Origin: Methanolobus vulcani | GTDB lineage: Archaea; Halobacteriota; Methanosarcinia; Methanosarcinales; Methanosarcinaceae | DNA length: 40,000 nucleotides | Reading direction: 5' to 3' | Assembly: GCF_900100715.1 (NCBI RefSeq) | Contig: NZ_FNCA01000006.1 | Coordinates: forward strand, 152,058-192,057 | Part shown: positions 1 to 7,403 of the stretch, one piece after another | Layout of the letters: each line of letters starts with the position of its first letter | How positions within the stretch are numbered: the stretch's first letter is position 1 | Made by a program: the position numbers and the translations under genes | Notes under the pieces: generated by a model | The model's input: the letters and a program-made list of their open reading frames with translations, nothing else | The model's database searches: none | Told to the model about the DNA's origin: nothing

Positions 1-786
1 CTCAGAATCAGTTCCGAAATCAGAAGAAATGTTGATCCATTCTTCTTGGTTGGCTTTCAGGTACTCGGTTGACCTGGCATGGGCTGTCACGAGTCTCTGT
101 ATACCTTCTCTGTTATTCTCGATCTCATCCCTTGTTGTAAGCATGCCTGCATTGATTGTGCCAACTCCTTCCCCATAATACGGATAGCTGAGCACGCGTC
201 CGTAACCATCTGCTATGGCAAGGGAGGGATAAGGTTCACCGCTGCAGAAAGCATCAACGGTGCCCTGCCAAAGCGCCTGTCCCATATCGAAGAAGTCTAT
301 CCTCTGTAGTGTTACCTCCTTTTCAGGATCAAGGCCTGCCTGTTTCAGTGTTTCCAGAAGCAGAACATGATGCATGGTTCCGGGTACATAGGCTATTGTC
401 TTGCCTTTCAGGTCTGATGCTGTCATGATATCCGAGTCATTCCTGACAACGATTGCTGAACATTTATTGCACAGGCTGCTCACAACAACAACAGGCTCGC
501 CTCTTGAGGCAGCGGTTATCGCAAGGGCGATTGTTGTACCTGTCATATCAAGATCGCCAGCAAGCAGAGCAGCTTTCTGATCGCCAGGATTGGTGAAGGG
601 GAGTACATCTATAATGTAATCTTCTTCAACGAAGTCCTGGTAGAGGAAGGGCTGTATGGTCTGTGCTGTTTTCCAGGTACCTACAGTTGCAACTTTGCTG
701 TCCTGATTGGCACTGCCGGTGCATCCCGACATGGACAGAGCAATAAGGACAATGATTATCACCAGAAACGGGAGAAATTTTTTCAT
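1..786 (-). CDS. Substrate-binding lipoprotein of the NitT/TauT (NMT1/SsuA/TauA-like) ABC-transporter family; the C-terminus lies beyond the window start
   Basis: Absent from the ORF track because there is no stop inside the window. My translation from the ATG at 786-784 is open for all 262 codons. It starts MKKFLPFLVIIIVLIALSMSGC (signal peptide plus lipobox Cys) and continues ...GKTIAYVPGTMHHVLLLETLKQAGLDPEKEVTLQRIDFFDMGQALWQGTVDAF... The ATG abuts the stop (787-789) of the upstream gene. Confidence 0.65.
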   Translation of the reverse strand, partial: MKKFLPFLVIIIVLIALSMSGCTGSANQDSKVATVGTWKTAQTIQPFLYQDFVEEDYIIDVLPFTNPGDQKAALLAGDLDMTGTTIALAITAASRGEPVVVVSSLCNKCSAIVVRNDSDIMTASDLKGKTIAYVPGTMHHVLLLETLKQAGLDPEKEVTLQRIDFFDMGQALWQGTVDAFCSGEPYPSLAIADGYGRVLSYPYYGEGVGTINAGMLTTRDEIENNREGIQRLVTAHARSTEYLKANQEEWINISSDFGTDSE

Positions 787-1830
787 TTAATCCACATCTC
801 CAGAATAGAAGACATAGCCTGCGTTCTCAAAGTAGTCCCTTGCAGTGACCATATCAAAACCATGCCATTCACAATCGCAGTTCCCGGTATCCCGAGGAAC
901 AGCGCCTGTTTCAACAACCACCACATTGGCCCCCCATTCCATTGCAATGCGGGAAGGGGGATGTACGCAGATGTCAGGTGTATGATGACCGGCTGCCAGC
1001 CGTGTGACAGCTACTATCTGTGCATGTCTTCTCTCGGATAACTGGTCACTGCCGGCAAAAGGAGTGCCTGGAAGTGGTACTCTTGCCATTGCTCCTGAAA
1101 GGATGGCACCATACTCCATACCTTTCAGGAAGATATCAGCAATCTCCTCATTGCTGTGTTCGATACCTACGGGTTCCACAAGATAAGCAAGGTTGAGCGG
1201 TGAATCTCTGACGGACCTAAGGGTGTCAATTCTGTCCTCGGGTCTGAACCTTGTATCCTTACCTTCACGCAGGCGGAGAGTGTGATAAACCACCTGTGCT
1301 CCGGCCTCTGCAAGTTTTCTTGCTTTTTCTTCATCGAACTCTCCGGTGTTCACAACTATTTCATAATTGCCGGTAACCGCCAGGCGGATGTCTTTTATGA
1401 GTTGAATGAGCCTGTCGAAGCCATAGAACTGGGTCGTGCGTAAGGTGACCCACCTTGCACCCTGGGATACGAACCTGTCTGTCAGTTCGATGATTTCTTC
1501 AGCGCTTCTTTCACTTTCCTGTGCTATAAGCCCCCATTTCTGGCCGAACGAACAGAAATCGCAATTCATGGCACATTTTTTGTAGTCCACTCCAATGGAT
1601 GCCCAGACGCTTGCCCGGTTTCCGGTGACCTCTTCAGCAACTTCCCTTGCGGCCATCCCGAGCATATCAGCATCAATGGAATCCGGGTCGATCTCAAGCA
1701 AGGCTATGATACTCTCCCTATCAAGTTTTTCACCATTCAGTGCCTTTTCCTTTGCAGTAAGAATAAGATTTGTATATGAGAATTCACTCATTAATCCCTC
1801 TTCTCTGCCATCAACGGATACATCACTCAT
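787..1830 (-). CDS. Radical SAM protein (TIM-barrel class, BioB/CofH/MqnE-like; exact family not recognised)
   Basis: The ORF track gives 787..1893. It has the CxxxCxxC motif CAMNCDFC. I prefer the ATG at 1830 (MSDVSV...), 2 nt after the stop of the upstream ligase gene. The track start at 1893 would overlap that gene by 61 nt. Confidence 0.75.
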   Translation of the reverse strand: MSDVSVDGREEGLMSEFSYTNLILTAKEKALNGEKLDRESIIALLEIDPDSIDADMLGMAAREVAEEVTGNRASVWASIGVDYKKCAMNCDFCSFGQKWGLIAQESERSAEEIIELTDRFVSQGARWVTLRTTQFYGFDRLIQLIKDIRLAVTGNYEIVVNTGEFDEEKARKLAEAGAQVVYHTLRLREGKDTRFRPEDRIDTLRSVRDSPLNLAYLVEPVGIEHSNEEIADIFLKGMEYGAILSGAMARVPLPGTPFAGSDQLSERRHAQIVAVTRLAAGHHTPDICVHPPSRIAMEWGANVVVVETGAVPRDTGNCDCEWHGFDMVTARDYFENAGYVFYSGDVD

Positions 1831-1832
1831 GC

Positions 1833-2969
1833 TTATTTCGCCATCCTTTCTATATCGCTGATCCTCTGGTCCAGACAGGCACCACACATACATGGTTCAT
1901 CGATAATTGAAGTGATATCTCGAGTCCTGTATCGGATAAGTGGCATGCACTTTCTTCTCAGAGTGGTGACCACAAGCTCACCTTTCTCACCTGCCGGCAG
2001 AACCTTCCCTGTCTTCGGATCGATGACCTCAACAAGGAAATCCGGATTGTTCAGGTGAAAGCCATTCTGATGTTCACACTCGATAGCATTTGCCAGACCA
2101 AGTTCTGTCATTCCCCACTGGCGCAGGGTTTTACAACCCCACACGCTCTCGATCACTTCCCGCATGGCCTCAGTCAGTGGTTCTGACGAACAGATGATTT
2201 TCTTAATTCCTAGTTCTCCCGGGCTAATAAGGCTGTGTGCCTGTAATGAAAGCTTATAGAGGAAAGATGATGTTCCGATTATGAAGGTTGTACCGGATTC
2301 TTTCATAGTCCTAATTTGCTCTCTGGCATCTAGTGAATCCTCAATAACGGAATTAAAACCTCCAAGAGTACATGCCTTACTCAGCACGAGTCCCGGGTCC
2401 CATGTTGCTGTGATGGTGGGATACATTATCTGCAAAATATCATCCTTTGAATCCATACCTGCCATCTTCAGACCGGATATGACAGAATCAACAATTTCCA
2501 GTAACTCATCCTGGGTATACGCCATCCTTTTCAGCATATTTGTCGTACCGGAGCTTGTAAATTCACGGATTATGTCTTTTCTTGGGACACAAAGGAAGTG
2601 ATAGGGTTTATTTGCAAGTTCCTCCTGCTCCGTAAGCGGCAGTCTTTCCAGATCTTCATAACTTCTAAACGCTGAAACATCGATGCCTGCATTTGCATAA
2701 AGATCCTGGTAATAGGGACTATTCTCCAGCACGTAGCCAAGAACCTCCCTGAACTTGATAAGCTTGTACTCTTTGATGGCTTCCCTATCAAGTTCAACGC
2801 CGCTGAAGTGATTGCTCAGTACCTTGTTATTTTTGATGTCATTCCTTATTTTTGTGAGACCCCACTGCTCAAGCGGGTTTCCGTGCTGAGCCTTTATTTT
2901 TCTGGAATCAAGCTTCCTTTTAGCCACGTTCATGCGAACAGATGTCTTAATCTTTGCCTGAATACTCAT
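1833..2969 (-). CDS. Adenylate-forming ligase, phenylacetate-CoA ligase / coenzyme F390 synthetase-like (PaaK family)
   Basis: The track ORF 1833..2987 starts at a TTG. The ATG at 2969 (MSIQAK...) has AGGAGG 6 nt upstream. It carries the adenylation motif TSSGTTNMLK and is ~380 aa, a size typical of the family. Confidence 0.75.
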   Translation of the reverse strand: MSIQAKIKTSVRMNVAKRKLDSRKIKAQHGNPLEQWGLTKIRNDIKNNKVLSNHFSGVELDREAIKEYKLIKFREVLGYVLENSPYYQDLYANAGIDVSAFRSYEDLERLPLTEQEELANKPYHFLCVPRKDIIREFTSSGTTNMLKRMAYTQDELLEIVDSVISGLKMAGMDSKDDILQIMYPTITATWDPGLVLSKACTLGGFNSVIEDSLDAREQIRTMKESGTTFIIGTSSFLYKLSLQAHSLISPGELGIKKIICSSEPLTEAMREVIESVWGCKTLRQWGMTELGLANAIECEHQNGFHLNNPDFLVEVIDPKTGKVLPAGEKGELVVTTLRRKCMPLIRYRTRDITSIIDEPCMCGACLDQRISDIERMAK

Positions 2970-3058
2970 CTTCTTCCTCCTGTACAATTTCAGACCATGC
3001 GGTCATTTGCCCGAACTAAAATAACTGGATAAAATGAAAATTTGAAAATAGAATTTAA

Positions 3059-4516
3059 TTATGTTGCATTCCTGTAAAGAGAATTCCCGTTGCAGTCAGT
3101 CATATTGTAATTACAGAACGGAATAAAACGTCCGTCACGTGTGACAACATGTATGCAACAATTCTCCACACGGTCCTGTTCATATGACCAGGCGTCCTGG
3201 AATGCCATTGTTGAAATGGTAAGATAATTGTTCTTGCTCATTTCGATGAAATCAGCCCAGCCTCCACTCTTATCCTTACCTGATCCAGAGTTCTTCGGAA
3301 GGATATCGATTAGCGGCTTCTCGCAGCATGAACCCTTCACGGTTAGGCTGCTGAGAGGTTTTTCACAGCAAGAGCTCTTTATCAGCAGGTCACCACAGGA
3401 TGATCCTGAATTTGAATCCTTTTCAAGACCCTTCCACCTGCCCATAATAGACTTCTTGGTCTTGCTTGCCACATCCGATGCCGATTTAACAGCACCCAAG
3501 GATACGTTTGTAAGTGGCAGATATCCACCGTTGTCTATCAATGTGAGACATGTGGCACCGCAATGTGCATGCGGCATAAGAGCCGGTGTAAAATTGCTGA
3601 CCTTGAGCTGTCTGTTGGTCTGCTTTTCTATCTCCTGCAAAAGTTCCAGTATGGTGACTTTATCCTTCATATCGGAAGGTGATCTTCCTGAGTGGAAAAC
3701 TGGCTGGAAATGCACACCTCTAACAGCCGGAACCCTTTTTGCAGCAAAATCTATGATACTGCCAACCTCGTGCAGATTGTAACCCTTTGCAACCAGAGGC
3801 ACTAACACAACACCGATACCGGCTTTCTCACACCGGTTTATAACCTCGGTCTTTACGTCGAGCATCTTCCTTCCTGTTCTCTGCATGTATACATCATCCG
3901 ACACACCATCAAATCCCAGATAGATGGCATCCACTCCTGCGGCTGCAATTCTATCAAAATAATTCTGGTCGCTGGCTATTCTGATACCGTTGGTGTTCAG
4001 TTCGATGTGGTTTATACCAATCTCCTTACCCATTCTGATTATTTCCGGAAGGTCGTTCCTTATGGTAGGTTCACCTCCGGATATCTGTATACATGTGGGT
4101 TCGTTCTGGCATTTCTTAACCGTCTCGAACATCAGCCTGATGGTATCCATATCAGGATCAAGACTTTCGTCCATTGATGAATTGGCAAAACAATATGTAC
4201 ACTTCATATTGCACCTGTCAGTAACCTCAACAACTGCCAGGCACGTATCCTGTTTATGAGAGGGACACAGGCCACAATCAAAAGGACAGCCACGCTGTGT
4301 TTCTGTCAGAGGTGACCTGGCTTTTGCCCTATCCACATCAAAACATTCCTCCATCTGAAGATAATGGTTCACATCTTCAGAGACAAGGTTAATGAAATTG
4401 CCATGGTCGGCACAGTTCTTCATTATGTAGACTTTGCCGTCCTCTACATATTTGACGCCTTCAATTTTGGCAAGGCACTGCGGACACAAACTCCGGACCG
4501 TTCCTATTTGTTCCAT
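3059..4516 (-). CDS. Radical SAM protein with N-terminal zinc ribbon, COG1964 / MJ0619 (tetraether-synthase family)-like architecture
   Basis: Motifs present: CPQC...C.DHG zinc ribbon, GCPFDCGLCPSHKQDTC, radical SAM CNMKCTYC, and C-terminal ENCCIHVVTRDGRFIPFCNYN. I remember this combination for COG1964 radical SAM proteins. A GGAGAGGG RBS-like sequence lies upstream of the ATG at 4516. Confidence 0.7.
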   Translation of the reverse strand: MEQIGTVRSLCPQCLAKIEGVKYVEDGKVYIMKNCADHGNFINLVSEDVNHYLQMEECFDVDRAKARSPLTETQRGCPFDCGLCPSHKQDTCLAVVEVTDRCNMKCTYCFANSSMDESLDPDMDTIRLMFETVKKCQNEPTCIQISGGEPTIRNDLPEIIRMGKEIGINHIELNTNGIRIASDQNYFDRIAAAGVDAIYLGFDGVSDDVYMQRTGRKMLDVKTEVINRCEKAGIGVVLVPLVAKGYNLHEVGSIIDFAAKRVPAVRGVHFQPVFHSGRSPSDMKDKVTILELLQEIEKQTNRQLKVSNFTPALMPHAHCGATCLTLIDNGGYLPLTNVSLGAVKSASDVASKTKKSIMGRWKGLEKDSNSGSSCGDLLIKSSCCEKPLSSLTVKGSCCEKPLIDILPKNSGSGKDKSGGWADFIEMSKNNYLTISTMAFQDAWSYEQDRVENCCIHVVTRDGRFIPFCNYNMTDCNGNSLYRNAT

Positions 4517-4568
4517 GATATCCCTCTCCAGGTGGTATATTTTAGATCTCAGGGATTCTGAGATTTGC

Positions 4569-5027
4569 TTAAGCTCTCTTCTCTTCCAGAATTGCTTCTG
4601 CTGTCTTCAGGGTCCTTGCAACACCATCAGAAACATAGAATTCATTGCATTTGGGACATACAAGCCCTGGTCCGGGTCTTGTAACACCCATATATGTCAT
4701 ATCCACGTTCCTTTCAAGTGCTATCTCACCGCATTTTGCACATGCCCATTCACTTGCATCATCATAGTCGATCTCGTTGAGTTCGCCTCCTGTGAGACCA
4801 AGAATGTTCATCTTGTGAGCATACACGTCTAAAAGCTCGGAAGGTGAATATACGGCATAGACGGTCAGGTTGTCTGATCCTCCCTTTGCAATGGATATAT
4901 CTCCCTCTCTGGCTTTGAGCTTCTGACCACTGGATTCTGCGTTGGCTATCAGTTCCTTGATCTCTTCCGTTTTGAAGCCGTTGTCCTTCAGTGTGTTGTT
5001 AAGTTCTTCAGTTATTTTGATATCCAT
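4569..5027 (-). CDS. Zinc-ribbon protein of unknown function (153 aa)
   Basis: The track ORF is 4569..5087. The ATG at 5027 (MDIKITEEL) is preceded by AAGGAG. Two CxxC pairs are present (CAKCG ... CPKCN). No family recognised. Confidence 0.5.
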   Translation of the reverse strand: MDIKITEELNNTLKDNGFKTEEIKELIANAESSGQKLKAREGDISIAKGGSDNLTVYAVYSPSELLDVYAHKMNILGLTGGELNEIDYDDASEWACAKCGEIALERNVDMTYMGVTRPGPGLVCPKCNEFYVSDGVARTLKTAEAILEEKRA

Positions 5028-5073
5028 GTGAAACACTCCTTGAATTTTATTTATGTTGTTGTCTCTCCTTTCC

Positions 5074-6186
5074 TTAGAACTTCTCATACTTTCCGTGGTC
5101 TTTTGCAGCCTTTACAAGTGCGTGGACATTCACAGGTGGTGCGTTTGTCGGACATTCACAGGCAGTTCCCAGGATGAATCCTCTCGGACTGTCCTTTCCG
5201 GCAATAACCTGCTCTTTTGCCTGTTCATAGACCTGTGCAGGTGTTCCACGGTCTACAAGTTTTGTGTCAACGGTACCGAAACAGGTACATCTGTCACCGA
5301 AGTGTTCCACAAGCTTGGATGTCGGGAAGATGTTCTGCCCGTCGTATCCTATCTGTACAATGGTGAAAGGACTCATTGGAGCGTTCTTCCACATCTGGAA
5401 GTCATCAGTATGGTTTCCACAAAGGTGGTAATAGATACCTGGTCCAGCTCCTGCATTCAGAACCTTTCTGACAGCACGGGAAACAGGCTGGAAACTGAAC
5501 CTCTTGATCTGTTCAGTGTCCATGAGATCACCGCTGGCGATAACTGAACCGGTAATCATTACGTTTGCACCGTATCTCTCAGCAGTTGCTTTACATGCAC
5601 TCACCATGTGGTCTCCTGCTTTCTGACAGAGTTTGTCGACGACCTCTGGTTCTGTTATCATCCACATGAATACATCTTCAATAGCAGCCCAGTTGGTTGC
5701 AACTTCCATTGTACCTCCCAGCTGAGTGATAGGTGCGAACATGTTGGGGAATTCCTCTTTACATGTGTCCAGTGCCTTGTAGTGTGTTGTAAGGGTTGGG
5801 CCTTTAGCAAGTTCATCACTGTCCAGTACTTCGAAGTTGTCAACATCCTCAGCGGTCTTTATCGGACGCTTGGTAATACCTGGCGGGGAATTTGTCTGTA
5901 TCTTTATCTCTGCTCCATAATCCTGTCCCCAATAATCGGCATACAGGTAGTGTCCTACCGGAGTGACGTCATAGAGTTCACAGGCATGGCACACCATCCT
6001 TATCGCTTCATCTGGGTTCTGGTAAAAATATCCTGCATTTTTCCTAAACAGACTTGCAGCATGGGACAAAATAATAGGGTCAACAATAACTCTTTCAGAT
6101 GGCTTGTCAACCCAAGGTGTTGTCCATAAACTTCCTGCATTTTCTAGCCAATTTTCATCTATTGGTGCATAGTCTTTTGCTGGCAT
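5074..6186 (-). CDS. Uroporphyrinogen-decarboxylase-fold methyltransferase, MtaA/CmuA (methylcobamide:CoM methyltransferase) family
   Basis: 370 aa. It shows an H-x-C zinc-ligand pattern (YHLCGNH) and a later Cys (GTACECP), as in MtaA/MtbA-type enzymes. It is the first gene of the minus-strand operon. Confidence 0.8.
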
Positions 6187-6620: not shown

Positions 6621-7403
6621 TTATTTTACTTTTTCCGATTTTTCCCTGTAATATTGGAAGAGATCTACTCCCCATCTGCGTGCGCTTTCTTCAAAACTGA
6701 GAACTTTTTTATGGTCAAAGATCCCATCCTTATTGAAAAAAGCGATGAGCATAATATCATCTGTAACGGAAAGTGCTCCCAGTTTCAGAGAATTGTCATC
6801 GCAAATATACATGTGAGAGTTCTTTGAGTTCATCATTGCATCATGCTGTTCTTTATATTCATCTCTAAGTCTTTCATAAACAGGCCTGGTGAGAATAAGA
6901 TTGTAGTTCACTTCTTTTTTTGCCAGTTCTGCATAATTGTCGGGACAGGTCGGACAGAAATATGAATAAAATGTACAGACATTCTCTGTCTGCTTGAGAC
7001 TTGTGAGCAATGCTTTTGGTGGCTCAAAAAGATGATTAAGGTCCGGCTCGTGTATCATTACTTCTCCGAGGTCCCCTATTCTGTCAAGTAGGAATTCTGG
7101 TATGGCGCTCATATTTCTGCTGTCCCAGTAATCCTTATTATCCTCCAGCACATTCAGGGTTTCTATAAGAGGTTTTATTTTTTTCATTACTATTTTTCCA
7201 ATAGAGGTCAACCTGTATTTATCCTCATTTTGCTCAATAAGCCCCTGTTCATAAAGGATCTTTACCTGAGCCATGATCGCACTGGTTGTTCCTGTAAGAG
7301 AATCTTTTATCTCATCGACGGTAGCTGGTTTGTCCATTAACATCAGGAGGGTTTTTTTTCTCTTTTCGGATAGGAACACAGTACTTATCAATTCGGCTTT
7401 CAT
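6621..7403 (-). CDS. Msr-type transcriptional regulator (ArsR-like wHTH + DUF1724-like C-terminal domain)
   Basis: N-terminal wHTH (FLSEKRKKTLLMLMDKPATVDEIKDSL...LYEQGLIE) followed by a ~190-aa C-terminal domain. This layout matches the Methanosarcina MsrA-G regulators. The ATG at 7403 (MKAELIST...) is preferred; the track start at 7481 remains possible. Confidence 0.7.
   Translation of the reverse strand: MKAELISTVFLSEKRKKTLLMLMDKPATVDEIKDSLTGTTSAIMAQVKILYEQGLIEQNEDKYRLTSIGKIVMKKIKPLIETLNVLEDNKDYWDSRNMSAIPEFLLDRIGDLGEVMIHEPDLNHLFEPPKALLTSLKQTENVCTFYSYFCPTCPDNYAELAKKEVNYNLILTRPVYERLRDEYKEQHDAMMNSKNSHMYICDDNSLKLGALSVTDDIMLIAFFNKDGIFDHKKVLSFEESARRWGVDLFQYYREKSEKVK

Follow-up and report, generated by a model that had tools for sequence, protein, structure and literature searches.

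The DNA considered here is a stretch of 40,000 nt from Methanolobus vulcani (assembly GCF_900100715.1; genome of 2.95 Mb, 99.98% complete) that corresponds to positions 152058-192057 of contig NZ_FNCA01000006.1 (C15 in the coordinates below) and is called the window. Its left end carries the first six genes of an eight-gene unit that is composed of two modules. Module A encodes URO-D', a DUF7479 protein, a TrsS-type radical S-adenosylmethionine (SAM) enzyme and a PaaK-like ligase, and is the archaeal form of the TrsS cassette. Module B is a separate four-gene unit that encodes a second radical SAM enzyme and an SsuA/NMT1-type ATP-binding cassette (ABC) importer. Both modules are part of an accessory island of about 30 kb that has a patchy distribution in Methanosarcinaceae. 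The families of the window proteins were assigned by Pfam and NCBIfam profile searches (TrsS being the best-scoring among 60 families compared) and agree with those that an initial annotation had proposed from the sequence. The features are as follows (window coordinates, except for the two genes lying left of the window):

5074..6186, minus strand: URO-D', a divergent MtaA-family protein with the uroporphyrinogen decarboxylase (URO-D) fold, of the zinc methyltransferase type; 370 aa; PF01208, 127 bits
4569..5027, minus strand: DUF7479 protein; 152 aa; PF24292, 58 bits
3059..4516, minus strand: TrsS-type radical SAM enzyme; 485 aa; NF045646, 476.5 bits
1833..2969, minus strand: DVU_1553-family PaaK-like adenylating enzyme (ligase), N-terminal domain only; 378 aa; NF045666, 265 bits
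787..1830, minus strand: second radical SAM enzyme (BioB/PylB/HydE-like), encoded by the gene that opens module B; 347 aa; PF04055, 38 bits
1..786, minus strand: SsuA/NMT1-type substrate-binding lipoprotein, of which the window covers the first 262 of 326 aa; PF09084, 83 bits
L001:13019-13828, left of the window: permease (BPD_transp_1), with a 23-nt overlap with the binding-protein gene
L001:12258-13022, left of the window: ABC ATPase, with a 4-nt overlap with the permease gene
6621..7403, minus strand: Msr/FilR1-type transcription regulator; 260 aa from the ATG at 7403, the open reading frame (ORF) being open to 7481

Direct reading of the sequence bears out the coordinates and junctions of the six tightly packed minus-strand genes described initially, the gaps between the ORFs ranging from 0 to 89 nt. 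The sequence upstream of position 6186 is AT-rich (GC 0.35), and the URO-D' gene (6186-5074) shows GGTGAT 7 nt 5' of its ATG. The DUF7479 gene, which follows after a gap of 46 nt, most likely starts at 5027, a start that is preceded by an AAGGAG ribosome-binding site and gives the same length (152 aa) as in the orthologues. A gap of 52 nt precedes the start of the TrsS gene (4516-3059) and one of 89 nt that of the ligase gene, whose most likely start is the ATG at 2969, located behind an AGGAGG motif. For the second radical SAM gene, the start lies at 1830, 2 nt past the ligase stop (an alternative ATG is found at 1791), and the ATG of the binding-protein gene (786) directly abuts the preceding stop (787). 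The latter gene is complete in the contig left of the window (326 aa, L001:13806-14786). The ABC permease and ATPase genes that the initial annotation suggested looking for there are both present and extend the block, so that the unit contains eight genes. A gene encoding an α/β hydrolase, 145 nt beyond the ATPase gene, was rejected as a member of the operon, as it is conserved in no other locus. The tight packing is not due to chance, since the synteny of the core is kept across Methanolobus and four other archaeal lineages.

For the gene context of the cassette, 80 loci that carry TrsS relatives (about 70 of them bacterial) were retrieved and their neighbours clustered. The order URO-D'-DUF7479-TrsS-ligase is found in all 15 Methanolobus loci, and likewise in Methanococcoides, Methanohalophilus, Methanosalsum, Methanomassiliicoccales and Hadarchaeum. 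By contrast, the four genes of module B (radical SAM and three ABC genes) occur together in only five of the 15 Methanolobus loci. The conservation of the block in related genomes therefore applies to the four-gene core and not to module B, and the six genes, first taken as one unit, belong to two modules. URO-D' adjoins DUF7479 and TrsS at every archaeal locus with sufficient flanking sequence. Several archaeal variants were identified. Methanomethylicia carry URO-D', DUF7479 and TrsS without an adjacent ligase, and an ArsM-like methyltransferase gene follows TrsS in Methanonatronarchaeum, in the place of the ligase gene. A Bathyarchaeia contig encodes DUF7479, a DVU_1556-like methyltransferase, TrsS and a weak URO-D. 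In Methanomassiliicoccales, TrsS and the ligase are separated by a DUF169 (COG2043) gene of opposite orientation (L016:11766-12590, L017:7385-8179, L019:1702-2487 and L020:11813-12586). The Methanonatronarchaeum cassette (URO-D', DUF7479, TrsS and ArsM-like methyltransferase; L108:8129-12098) sits inside the gene cluster of an A-type ATP synthase. Within Methanosarcinaceae, TrsS orthologues were found in 33 of 151 genomes, that is in 6 of 16 genera, in 20 of 34 Methanolobus species and in 0 of 34 in the largest other genus. Methanosarcina acetivorans has no copy of the island.

This core has already been catalogued: it is the TrsS cassette of NCBIfam (NF045646, NF045666 and NF045645), which was described from bioinformatics alone; in the table of a 2026 review (PMC13188914), TrsS is given as a selenoprotein family of Haft and Tolstoy (2025, mSystems). 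Literature searches for the locus tags of the cassette, for DUF5714 and DUF7479, or for the gene set in Methanolobus and Methanococcoides returned nothing useful, and the initial statement that no characterised pathway has this gene set holds.

The TrsS protein of M. vulcani scores 476.5 bits with NF045646, just under the cut-off of 490, and 375.5 bits with the Tes model NF045702 (cut-off 450). The score obtained with NF045646 is probably lowered by a lineage-specific Cys-rich insert, and a Methanolobus orthologue sharing 83% identity is named TrsS by NCBI. The protein is a three-cluster enzyme with a Tes/GDGT-MAS-like architecture (294 bits with the GDGT-MAS structure 7TOL). It displays the N-terminal CxxC...CxxH ribbon, the CPxDCGLC...C and CX3CX2C motifs and the C-terminal C...CC...C motif, and residues C11/C14/C35/H38, C77/C81/C84/C92, C102/C106/C109 and C319/C453/C454/C468 are invariant in 16 aligned sequences. 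In a maximum-likelihood tree, it is placed in a starred archaeal clade of 13 rows (100/97), in which Methanonatronarchaeum is sister to Methanosarcinaceae; archaeal TrsS form one starred clade. Two rows of this tree (L085 and L092) were disregarded, as their ORFs had been picked wrongly and their branches are very long. The insert (3308-3409, minus strand) is a Cys-rich SCCEKPL tandem confined to the Methanosarcinaceae clade (columns ~395-440 of alignment A1); its length and sequence differ among genera, and the TrsS match is split at this point in two Methanolobus genomes. In one Methanolobus genome, the TrsS orthologue has an in-frame TAA (G002:C43:21679-23118) and may be a pseudogene.

The similarity of TrsS to GDGT-MAS, which includes the cluster-binding cysteines, raises the question of a role in the modification of membrane lipids, in which TrsS would act like Tes on isoprenoid tails and its neighbours would be accessory. 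Genes encoding geranylgeranylglyceryl phosphate (GGGP) and digeranylgeranylglyceryl phosphate (DGGGP) synthases are indeed found after the ligase in three of the four Methanomassiliicoccales loci (L016, L017 and L019). However, this adjacency to lipid genes is limited to one order, and three Tes-like paralogues branch outside the TrsS clades. Furthermore, the TrsS model beats the Tes model (476 versus 375 bits), and the constant partners of TrsS are a soluble methyltransferase, a ligase and a zinc-ribbon protein. A function in lipid modification thus appears highly improbable.

The other three proteins of module A are all divergent from characterized relatives. URO-D' scores below the cut-offs of the MtaA/CmuA model TIGR01463 (76 bits, cut-off 235), of NF040654 (51 bits, cut-off 400) and of NF041608 (43 bits, cut-off 600), and a tblastn search of the genome gave no match at E<=1e-5 between URO-D' and the MtbA copies of the same organism. 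It can nevertheless be aligned to the MtaA structure 4AY7, and the zinc triad His-x-Cys...Cys (H254, C256 and C343) is invariant in 13 aligned sequences that include the true MtbA of the genome, with which URO-D' shares 20% identity. Its initial description as an MtaA-like methyltransferase is therefore sustained as regards the zinc site, but not as regards overall identity to MtbA or the MtaA model scores.

The DUF7479 protein combines two domains. The C-terminal part, to which the PF24292 match maps, is a four-Cys ribbon of the DVU_1557 type (NF045645 is the best match, with 33.7 bits, but is under its cut-off), and the N-terminal domain shares homology with the C-terminal tail of a bacterial 'dicluster' oxidoreductase (positions 676-758 of 759 in NF045663). 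Its cysteines are nearly invariant in the alignment. An AlphaFold model of good quality (pLDDT 85, pTM 0.80) gave no fold match in the PDB at E<=0.001.

The best match of the ligase is NF045666 (265 bits, cut-off 300), and its score with the PaaK model TIGR02155 is well below the cut-off (156.8 bits versus 646). It aligns to residues 14-319 of the 436 residues of PaaK 4R1L and then ends. Homologues from most other lineages have about 110-120 extra residues; the truncated form, in which the whole C-terminal domain is missing, is found in Methanosarcinaceae and Hadarchaeum. In relatives, this domain carries a lysine motif of the KxKxxxDKR type. No separate ligase C-terminal domain was found in the genome, and neither the N-terminal domain of DUF7479 nor a separate ORF was retained as a substitute. 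The former is not the C-terminal part of the ligase, since lineages with a full-length ligase retain the same DUF7479 protein.

In module B, the second radical SAM enzyme has the CX3CX2C motif, but its scores with the BioB (49 bits, cut-off 225), PylB (55 bits, cut-off 348) and HydE (21 bits, cut-off 255) models are all under the cut-offs. The binding protein has the NMT1 fold and is also under the cut-off of its closest model, SsuA_fam TIGR01728 (120.6 bits, cut-off 163.5). Nine of the 15 Methanolobus loci carry, after the ligase, a gene for a channel of the MIP family (aquaporin type); one locus has neither this gene nor module B, and none has both. A MIP channel gene also follows the ligase in Methanococcoides (the Methanolobus and Methanococcoides loci concerned are L094, L096-L099, L101, L104, L105, L107 and L111:12840-13535). 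A MduS/TehB-like methyltransferase gene lies between the ligase and radical SAM genes in two of the five loci with module B. In Methanohalophilus, module B adjoins the core but is divergent.

The nearest non-archaeal relatives of the second radical SAM enzyme belong to Firmicutes (53-60% identity; Pelotomaculum, Dehalobacter and Acetobacterium). In Dehalobacter sp. DCM, Pelotomaculum propionicicum and Acetobacterium bakii, it is encoded beside the same binding protein, permease and ATPase, and no TrsS gene was found near the module in these three loci (L115:8452-12585, L116:6324-9978 and L117:7580-11543), two of which have a PadR gene ahead of it. ArsA-type ATPase genes were observed near the module in two of the three Firmicutes loci. 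All four module B proteins share 52-66% identity between archaea and Firmicutes (60-66% for the binding protein), which indicates a transfer of the whole module. Its GC content (0.48-0.50) is also slightly higher than that of the core (0.43-0.47). Judging from these comparisons of sequence and gene order, modules A and B are inherited independently.

Upstream of the unit, the product of the gene at 6621-7403 is, as initially proposed, an Msr-type regulator: it scores 120.7 bits with PF08350 (FilR1_middle; cut-off 27), and the N-terminal HVO_A0261_N winged helix and HTH_5 models match as well. Ten of the 14 other Methanolobus loci have an orthologue (72-92% identity) upstream of the core. The genome encodes about 17 paralogues of this FilR1 type, the closest of which (73% identity) heads a distal block of genes that includes a corrinoid protein.

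In Methanococcoides, Methanosalsum and most Methanolobus loci, the core is next to this second, mostly convergent block. The initial annotation had stated that no corrinoid partner is in view; this is correct within the window, but a dedicated corrinoid protein, MtbA and a RamA-type activase are encoded on the same contig 17-27 kb to the left, in the block located at C15:128-141 kb. In this genome, some 11 kb lie between the operon and the block and contain unrelated genes for a sensor kinase, an HD protein, a CDGSH protein and a multihaem cytochrome. The latter protein is a c-type cytochrome with a PGF-CTERM sorting signal (L001:9599-10897, i.e. C15:147656-148954). Besides the RamA-type corrinoid activase, the corrinoid protein and MtbA, the distal block encodes the second FilR1 regulator mentioned above, an 8-Cys mini-protein, a 722-aa flavoenzyme of the Old Yellow Enzyme (OYE)/FadH type, an aldehyde dehydrogenase, a short-chain dehydrogenase/reductase (SDR) and a DUF5714 protein that scores 156 bits with the model of the 'metal-binding double selenoprotein MbdU'. 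DUF5714/MbdU-like genes are also found beside TrsS in five bacterial loci.

The MtbA of the island is a true MtbA (646.6 bits, cut-off 600), and at least five other MtbA copies are present in the genome. The corrinoid protein of the island shares no more than 42% identity with any paralogue; for the RamA of the island, the maximum is 45% (41% over its full length). The island contains no classical methyltransferase 1 (MT1) gene. A 336-aa protein without Pfam family (L114:12579-13589, i.e. C15:136578-137588) was considered as a candidate MT1 and rejected, as the sequence shows it to be a conserved polytopic membrane protein; its structure model (pLDDT 39) was too poor for a fold search. The gene of this membrane protein, present in two or three copies in some genomes, serves as a marker of the island: it occurs in 36 of the 151 family genomes, including all 33 TrsS-positive ones, and lies on the same contig as TrsS and within 25 kb of it in 30 of these 33. 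As related genomes are not independent samples, the count of 33/33 indicates co-inheritance and does not prove a shared function.

The 8-Cys mini-protein (~100 aa with eight conserved cysteines) belongs to no Pfam or NCBIfam family. Eleven archaeal loci, representing five lineages, have its gene beside TrsS, as against 0 of the ~70 bacterial loci. Together with the DUF5714 genes found next to bacterial TrsS, it provides a further connection between the operon and the distal block. Its positions are as follows:

C15:131302-131670 (L114:7294-7671), minus strand: 8-Cys mini-protein, the single copy of the genome, in the distal block, 24 kb from the core operon
L015:3709-4026, L019:1323-1628, L109:2481-2795 and L112:7572-7883: 8-Cys mini-protein beside the TrsS cassette in other loci

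The genes might also have no common function, being neighbours by chance or through a recent insertion and belonging to separate pathways. The independence and mobility of module B and the ~11 kb of unrelated genes that split the operon from the rest of the island here would fit such a view. Nevertheless, the four-gene core is kept across archaeal phyla, the junctions include gaps of 0-2 nt or overlaps, and the island marker co-occurs with TrsS in 33 cases out of 33. Chance adjacency is thus excluded for the core and is partly true for module B, and there is very little likelihood that the gene set as a whole lacks a common function.

Comparison with bacteria provides further indications on this function. 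The ligase gene almost always follows TrsS in bacterial loci, as it does in most of the 80 loci overall. The other bacterial neighbours encode a MOP-type molybdenum aldehyde oxidoreductase (NF045668, 38 loci), DVU_1557, the 760-aa flavin/iron-sulphur/CCG 'dicluster' oxidoreductase, a methyltransferase of the ArsM-like DVU_1556 family (57 loci), an XdhC-type factor, a MocA-like transferase and a C_GCAxxG_C_C protein. URO-D' was found in none of the ~70 bacterial TrsS loci, in which the SAM-dependent DVU_1556 fills the slot that URO-D' takes in archaea. The conserved residues C111 and C160 of DVU_1556 were considered as possible ArsM-type cysteines but are not alignable to ArsM and were given no weight. 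The replacement of a SAM-dependent methyltransferase by one of corrinoid type fits the lineages that carry URO-D', most of which are known for methyl-based methanogenesis, Hadarchaeum and Bathyarchaeia being exceptions. A tblastn search of the 2.95-Mb genome gave no match to the aldehyde oxidoreductase, XdhC, the MocA-like transferase or the C_GCAxxG_C_C protein. As the genome lacks both the oxidoreductase and its maturation genes, the cassette is not dedicated to a molybdenum aldehyde oxidoreductase in this organism.

These bacterial data bear directly on the main rival of the pathway proposed below, i.e. the maturation of a cofactor or prosthetic group, in which TrsS, the ligase, the methyltransferase and the small Cys-rich proteins would build or tailor a sulphur- or selenium-containing group for a partner metalloenzyme (the MOP-type aldehyde oxidoreductase in bacteria and a different enzyme in archaea). 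The location of the bacterial cassette between the gene of this oxidoreductase and the XdhC and MocA-like maturation genes is in agreement with such a role. So are the existence of a pterin-modifying member of the TrsS family (PF23545 is named after HMPTM) and that of selenoprotein forms in several families of the cassette. On the other hand, neither the oxidoreductase nor XdhC, the MocA-like transferase or the C_GCAxxG_C_C protein has a homologue here, a patchy distribution (20 of the 34 species of the genus) is unusual for a cofactor pathway, and the cassette is accompanied by transporters, by regulators and by a full set of methyl-transfer genes. Maturation is accordingly considered unlikely, although both options put forward in the initial annotation, uptake followed by processing and cofactor tailoring, remain live readings.

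The preferred interpretation is that the island specifies a conditional small-molecule pathway with corrinoid-linked methyl transfer rather than a housekeeping function, a proposal drawn from gene content that is held with about even confidence. A housekeeping cofactor would agree less well than a conditional pathway with the patchy spread of the island, with its dedicated regulators and transporters and with the presence of a corrinoid protein, an MtbA and a RamA of its own. The pathway could be envisaged as follows. A compound would be imported by the ABC importer (or through the MIP channel in sister genomes) and the ligase would handle its carboxylate. TrsS would act by radical chemistry on an unactivated carbon of the skeleton, DUF7479 and the 8-Cys proteins being putative redox or metal partners. 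URO-D' would then shift a methyl group between a thiol-like atom (sulphur, selenium or a metalloid) of the compound and the corrinoid protein of the island, from which MtbA would hand it on to coenzyme M.

Two precedents for the step assigned to URO-D' come from thioether metabolism, in which proteins of the methyltransferase 2 (MT2) family take the part of MT1 for methyl-thioethers: MtsA has a dual function and MtpA is specific, being a methylmercaptopropionate:cob(I)alamin enzyme (bioRxiv 10.1101/548461). These precedents from the MT2 family, the conservation of the zinc site and the lack of another MT1 in the island are the reasons why URO-D' is proposed to be a methyltransferase. A carboxylic intermediate would also fit, as an aldehyde-oxidising enzyme recurs by the cassette (with molybdenum in bacteria and of the NAD type here). 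As for the substrate, the ArsM-, MduS/TehB-, AhpD- and MbdU-like partners (all below cut-offs), the MIP channel and the arsenic methylation described for MtaA with methylcobalamin (see below) hint at a compound bearing sulphur, selenium or a metalloid.

The same partners could alternatively reflect the handling of metals, metalloids or chalcogens, in which arsenic, antimony, selenium or tellurium species would be methylated or transformed in another way, either to detoxify them or to synthesise organo-element compounds, URO-D' being the methylcobamide-dependent counterpart of ArsM and TrsS forming a carbon-element bond. ArsM-like partners occur in bacteria (DVU_1556) and in Methanonatronarchaeum, the protein of the latter scoring 166 bits with an arsenite methyltransferase model, and a MduS/TehB-like methyltransferase and an AhpD-like gene are found in some Methanolobus cassettes. 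The score of the DUF5714 protein with the 'metal-binding' MbdU model and the MIP channel gene found after the ligase in nine of the 15 loci would also be compatible with this scheme. In addition, arsenic methylation by MtaA with methylcobalamin was described as a side reaction of methanogens (Thomas et al. 2011, cited in PMC13262295). However, the family matches that support this scheme are all under cut-offs, MIP channels are also general pores for water and solutes, and none of the loci read showed an ars-type regulator, efflux pump or reductase. Moreover, the regulators are of the Msr/FilR1 type, which is tied to methyl-substrate operons, and the aldehyde dehydrogenase, SDR and OYE genes would have no obvious role. 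Such a function therefore seems quite unlikely.

Several points weigh against the conditional pathway with corrinoid-linked methyl transfer. URO-D' is below the cut-off of every MtaA-family model. The ligase lacks the domain that usually bears the catalytic lysine, so that the activation step may not take place in the form proposed. The co-inheritance, observed in a single family, might reflect inherited synteny instead of a common role. Beyond Methanosarcinaceae, no corrinoid/MtbA block adjoins the cassette, and the methyl link to methanogenesis may therefore not be general. To our knowledge, Hadarchaeum and Bathyarchaeia, which carry the cassette, are not established methanogens. Finally, the bacterial cassette is tied to the molybdenum aldehyde oxidoreductase and its maturation genes, which fits a maturation role at least as well.

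A more specific version of the conditional pathway can be formulated, although it is doubtful: the island might encode a route of methylotrophic methanogenesis so far unknown, in which URO-D' would be the MT1 of the otherwise MT1-less set of corrinoid protein, MtbA and RamA. It would demethylate an imported carboxylic compound, methylated on sulphur, selenium or arsenic or else methoxylated, after a first processing by TrsS and the ligase through radical chemistry. The methanogens in which the cassette is tied to the corrinoid protein, MtbA and RamA are halophilic and methylotrophic. If the corrinoid link is functional, it would point to a new class of methanogenic substrates in marine and hypersaline sediments and, if this holds true, TrsS would be the first radical SAM enzyme acting upstream of a methanogenic methyl-transfer chain.

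Whatever the substrate, TrsS cassettes are found in hundreds of strict anaerobes, and the archaeal form offers a tractable entry to their function. As it has no molybdenum enzyme and has a zinc methyltransferase of corrinoid type, the chemistry common to all cassettes is narrowed to radical SAM chemistry, acyl activation and methyl transfer to or from a soft atom. TrsS being a look-alike of Tes, it should not be counted as a tetraether-lipid synthase gene in surveys of lipid biomarkers. Module B is a clear case of a four-gene unit, combining an importer with a radical SAM enzyme, that is common to Firmicutes and archaea.

The nearest catalogued relative of module A is the TrsS neighbourhood exemplified by DVU_1551-DVU_1557 of Desulfovibrio vulgaris (NF045646, NF045666, NF045667, NF045669, NF045645, NF045663, NF045664, NF045665 and NF045668). 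Both have in common TrsS, the DVU_1553-type ligase, the DUF7479/DVU_1557 domain, the tail domain of the dicluster oxidoreductase and a constant methyltransferase partner. The archaeal form differs from the bacterial one by the absence of the aldehyde oxidoreductase, XdhC, MocA-like transferase, C_GCAxxG_C_C protein and large flavoprotein. In addition, a zinc protein of the MtaA family replaces the SAM-dependent methyltransferase, all members are Cys forms, the ligase is truncated, and the 8-Cys mini-protein and the corrinoid/MtbA block are added.

In the MtsA/MtsB and MtpA/MtpC systems of Methanosarcina, a protein of the MT2 family acts on a thioether together with a small corrinoid protein (Fu, Goettge and Metcalf, bioRxiv 10.1101/548461). 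By comparison, URO-D' is only ~20% identical to MtbA and is not encoded next to a corrinoid gene, and the Mts and Mtp systems include no radical SAM enzyme, ligase or DUF7479 protein. The mtpCAP operon also has a transporter and is controlled by an Msr-family regulator.

Tes/GDGT-MAS (7TOL) has the same domain order and the same four Cys/His metal sites as TrsS, but TrsS belongs to a separate clade, scores below the Tes cut-off and has different gene partners. Systems of the SaoX and ArsS types, in which an ArsM-type methyltransferase accompanies a radical SAM (seleno)protein, or organo-element chemistry is combined with an SsuA-like binding protein and ABC importer, are alike in their logic only: the score with the SaoX model (54 bits) is far below the cut-off of 300, and TrsS is unrelated to ArsS. 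Lastly, the Firmicutes operons encoding a radical SAM enzyme, binding protein, permease and ATPase consist of the same four genes as module B, but they stand alone, whereas in M. vulcani these genes are fused to the TrsS cassette, with 2 nt between them and its last gene.

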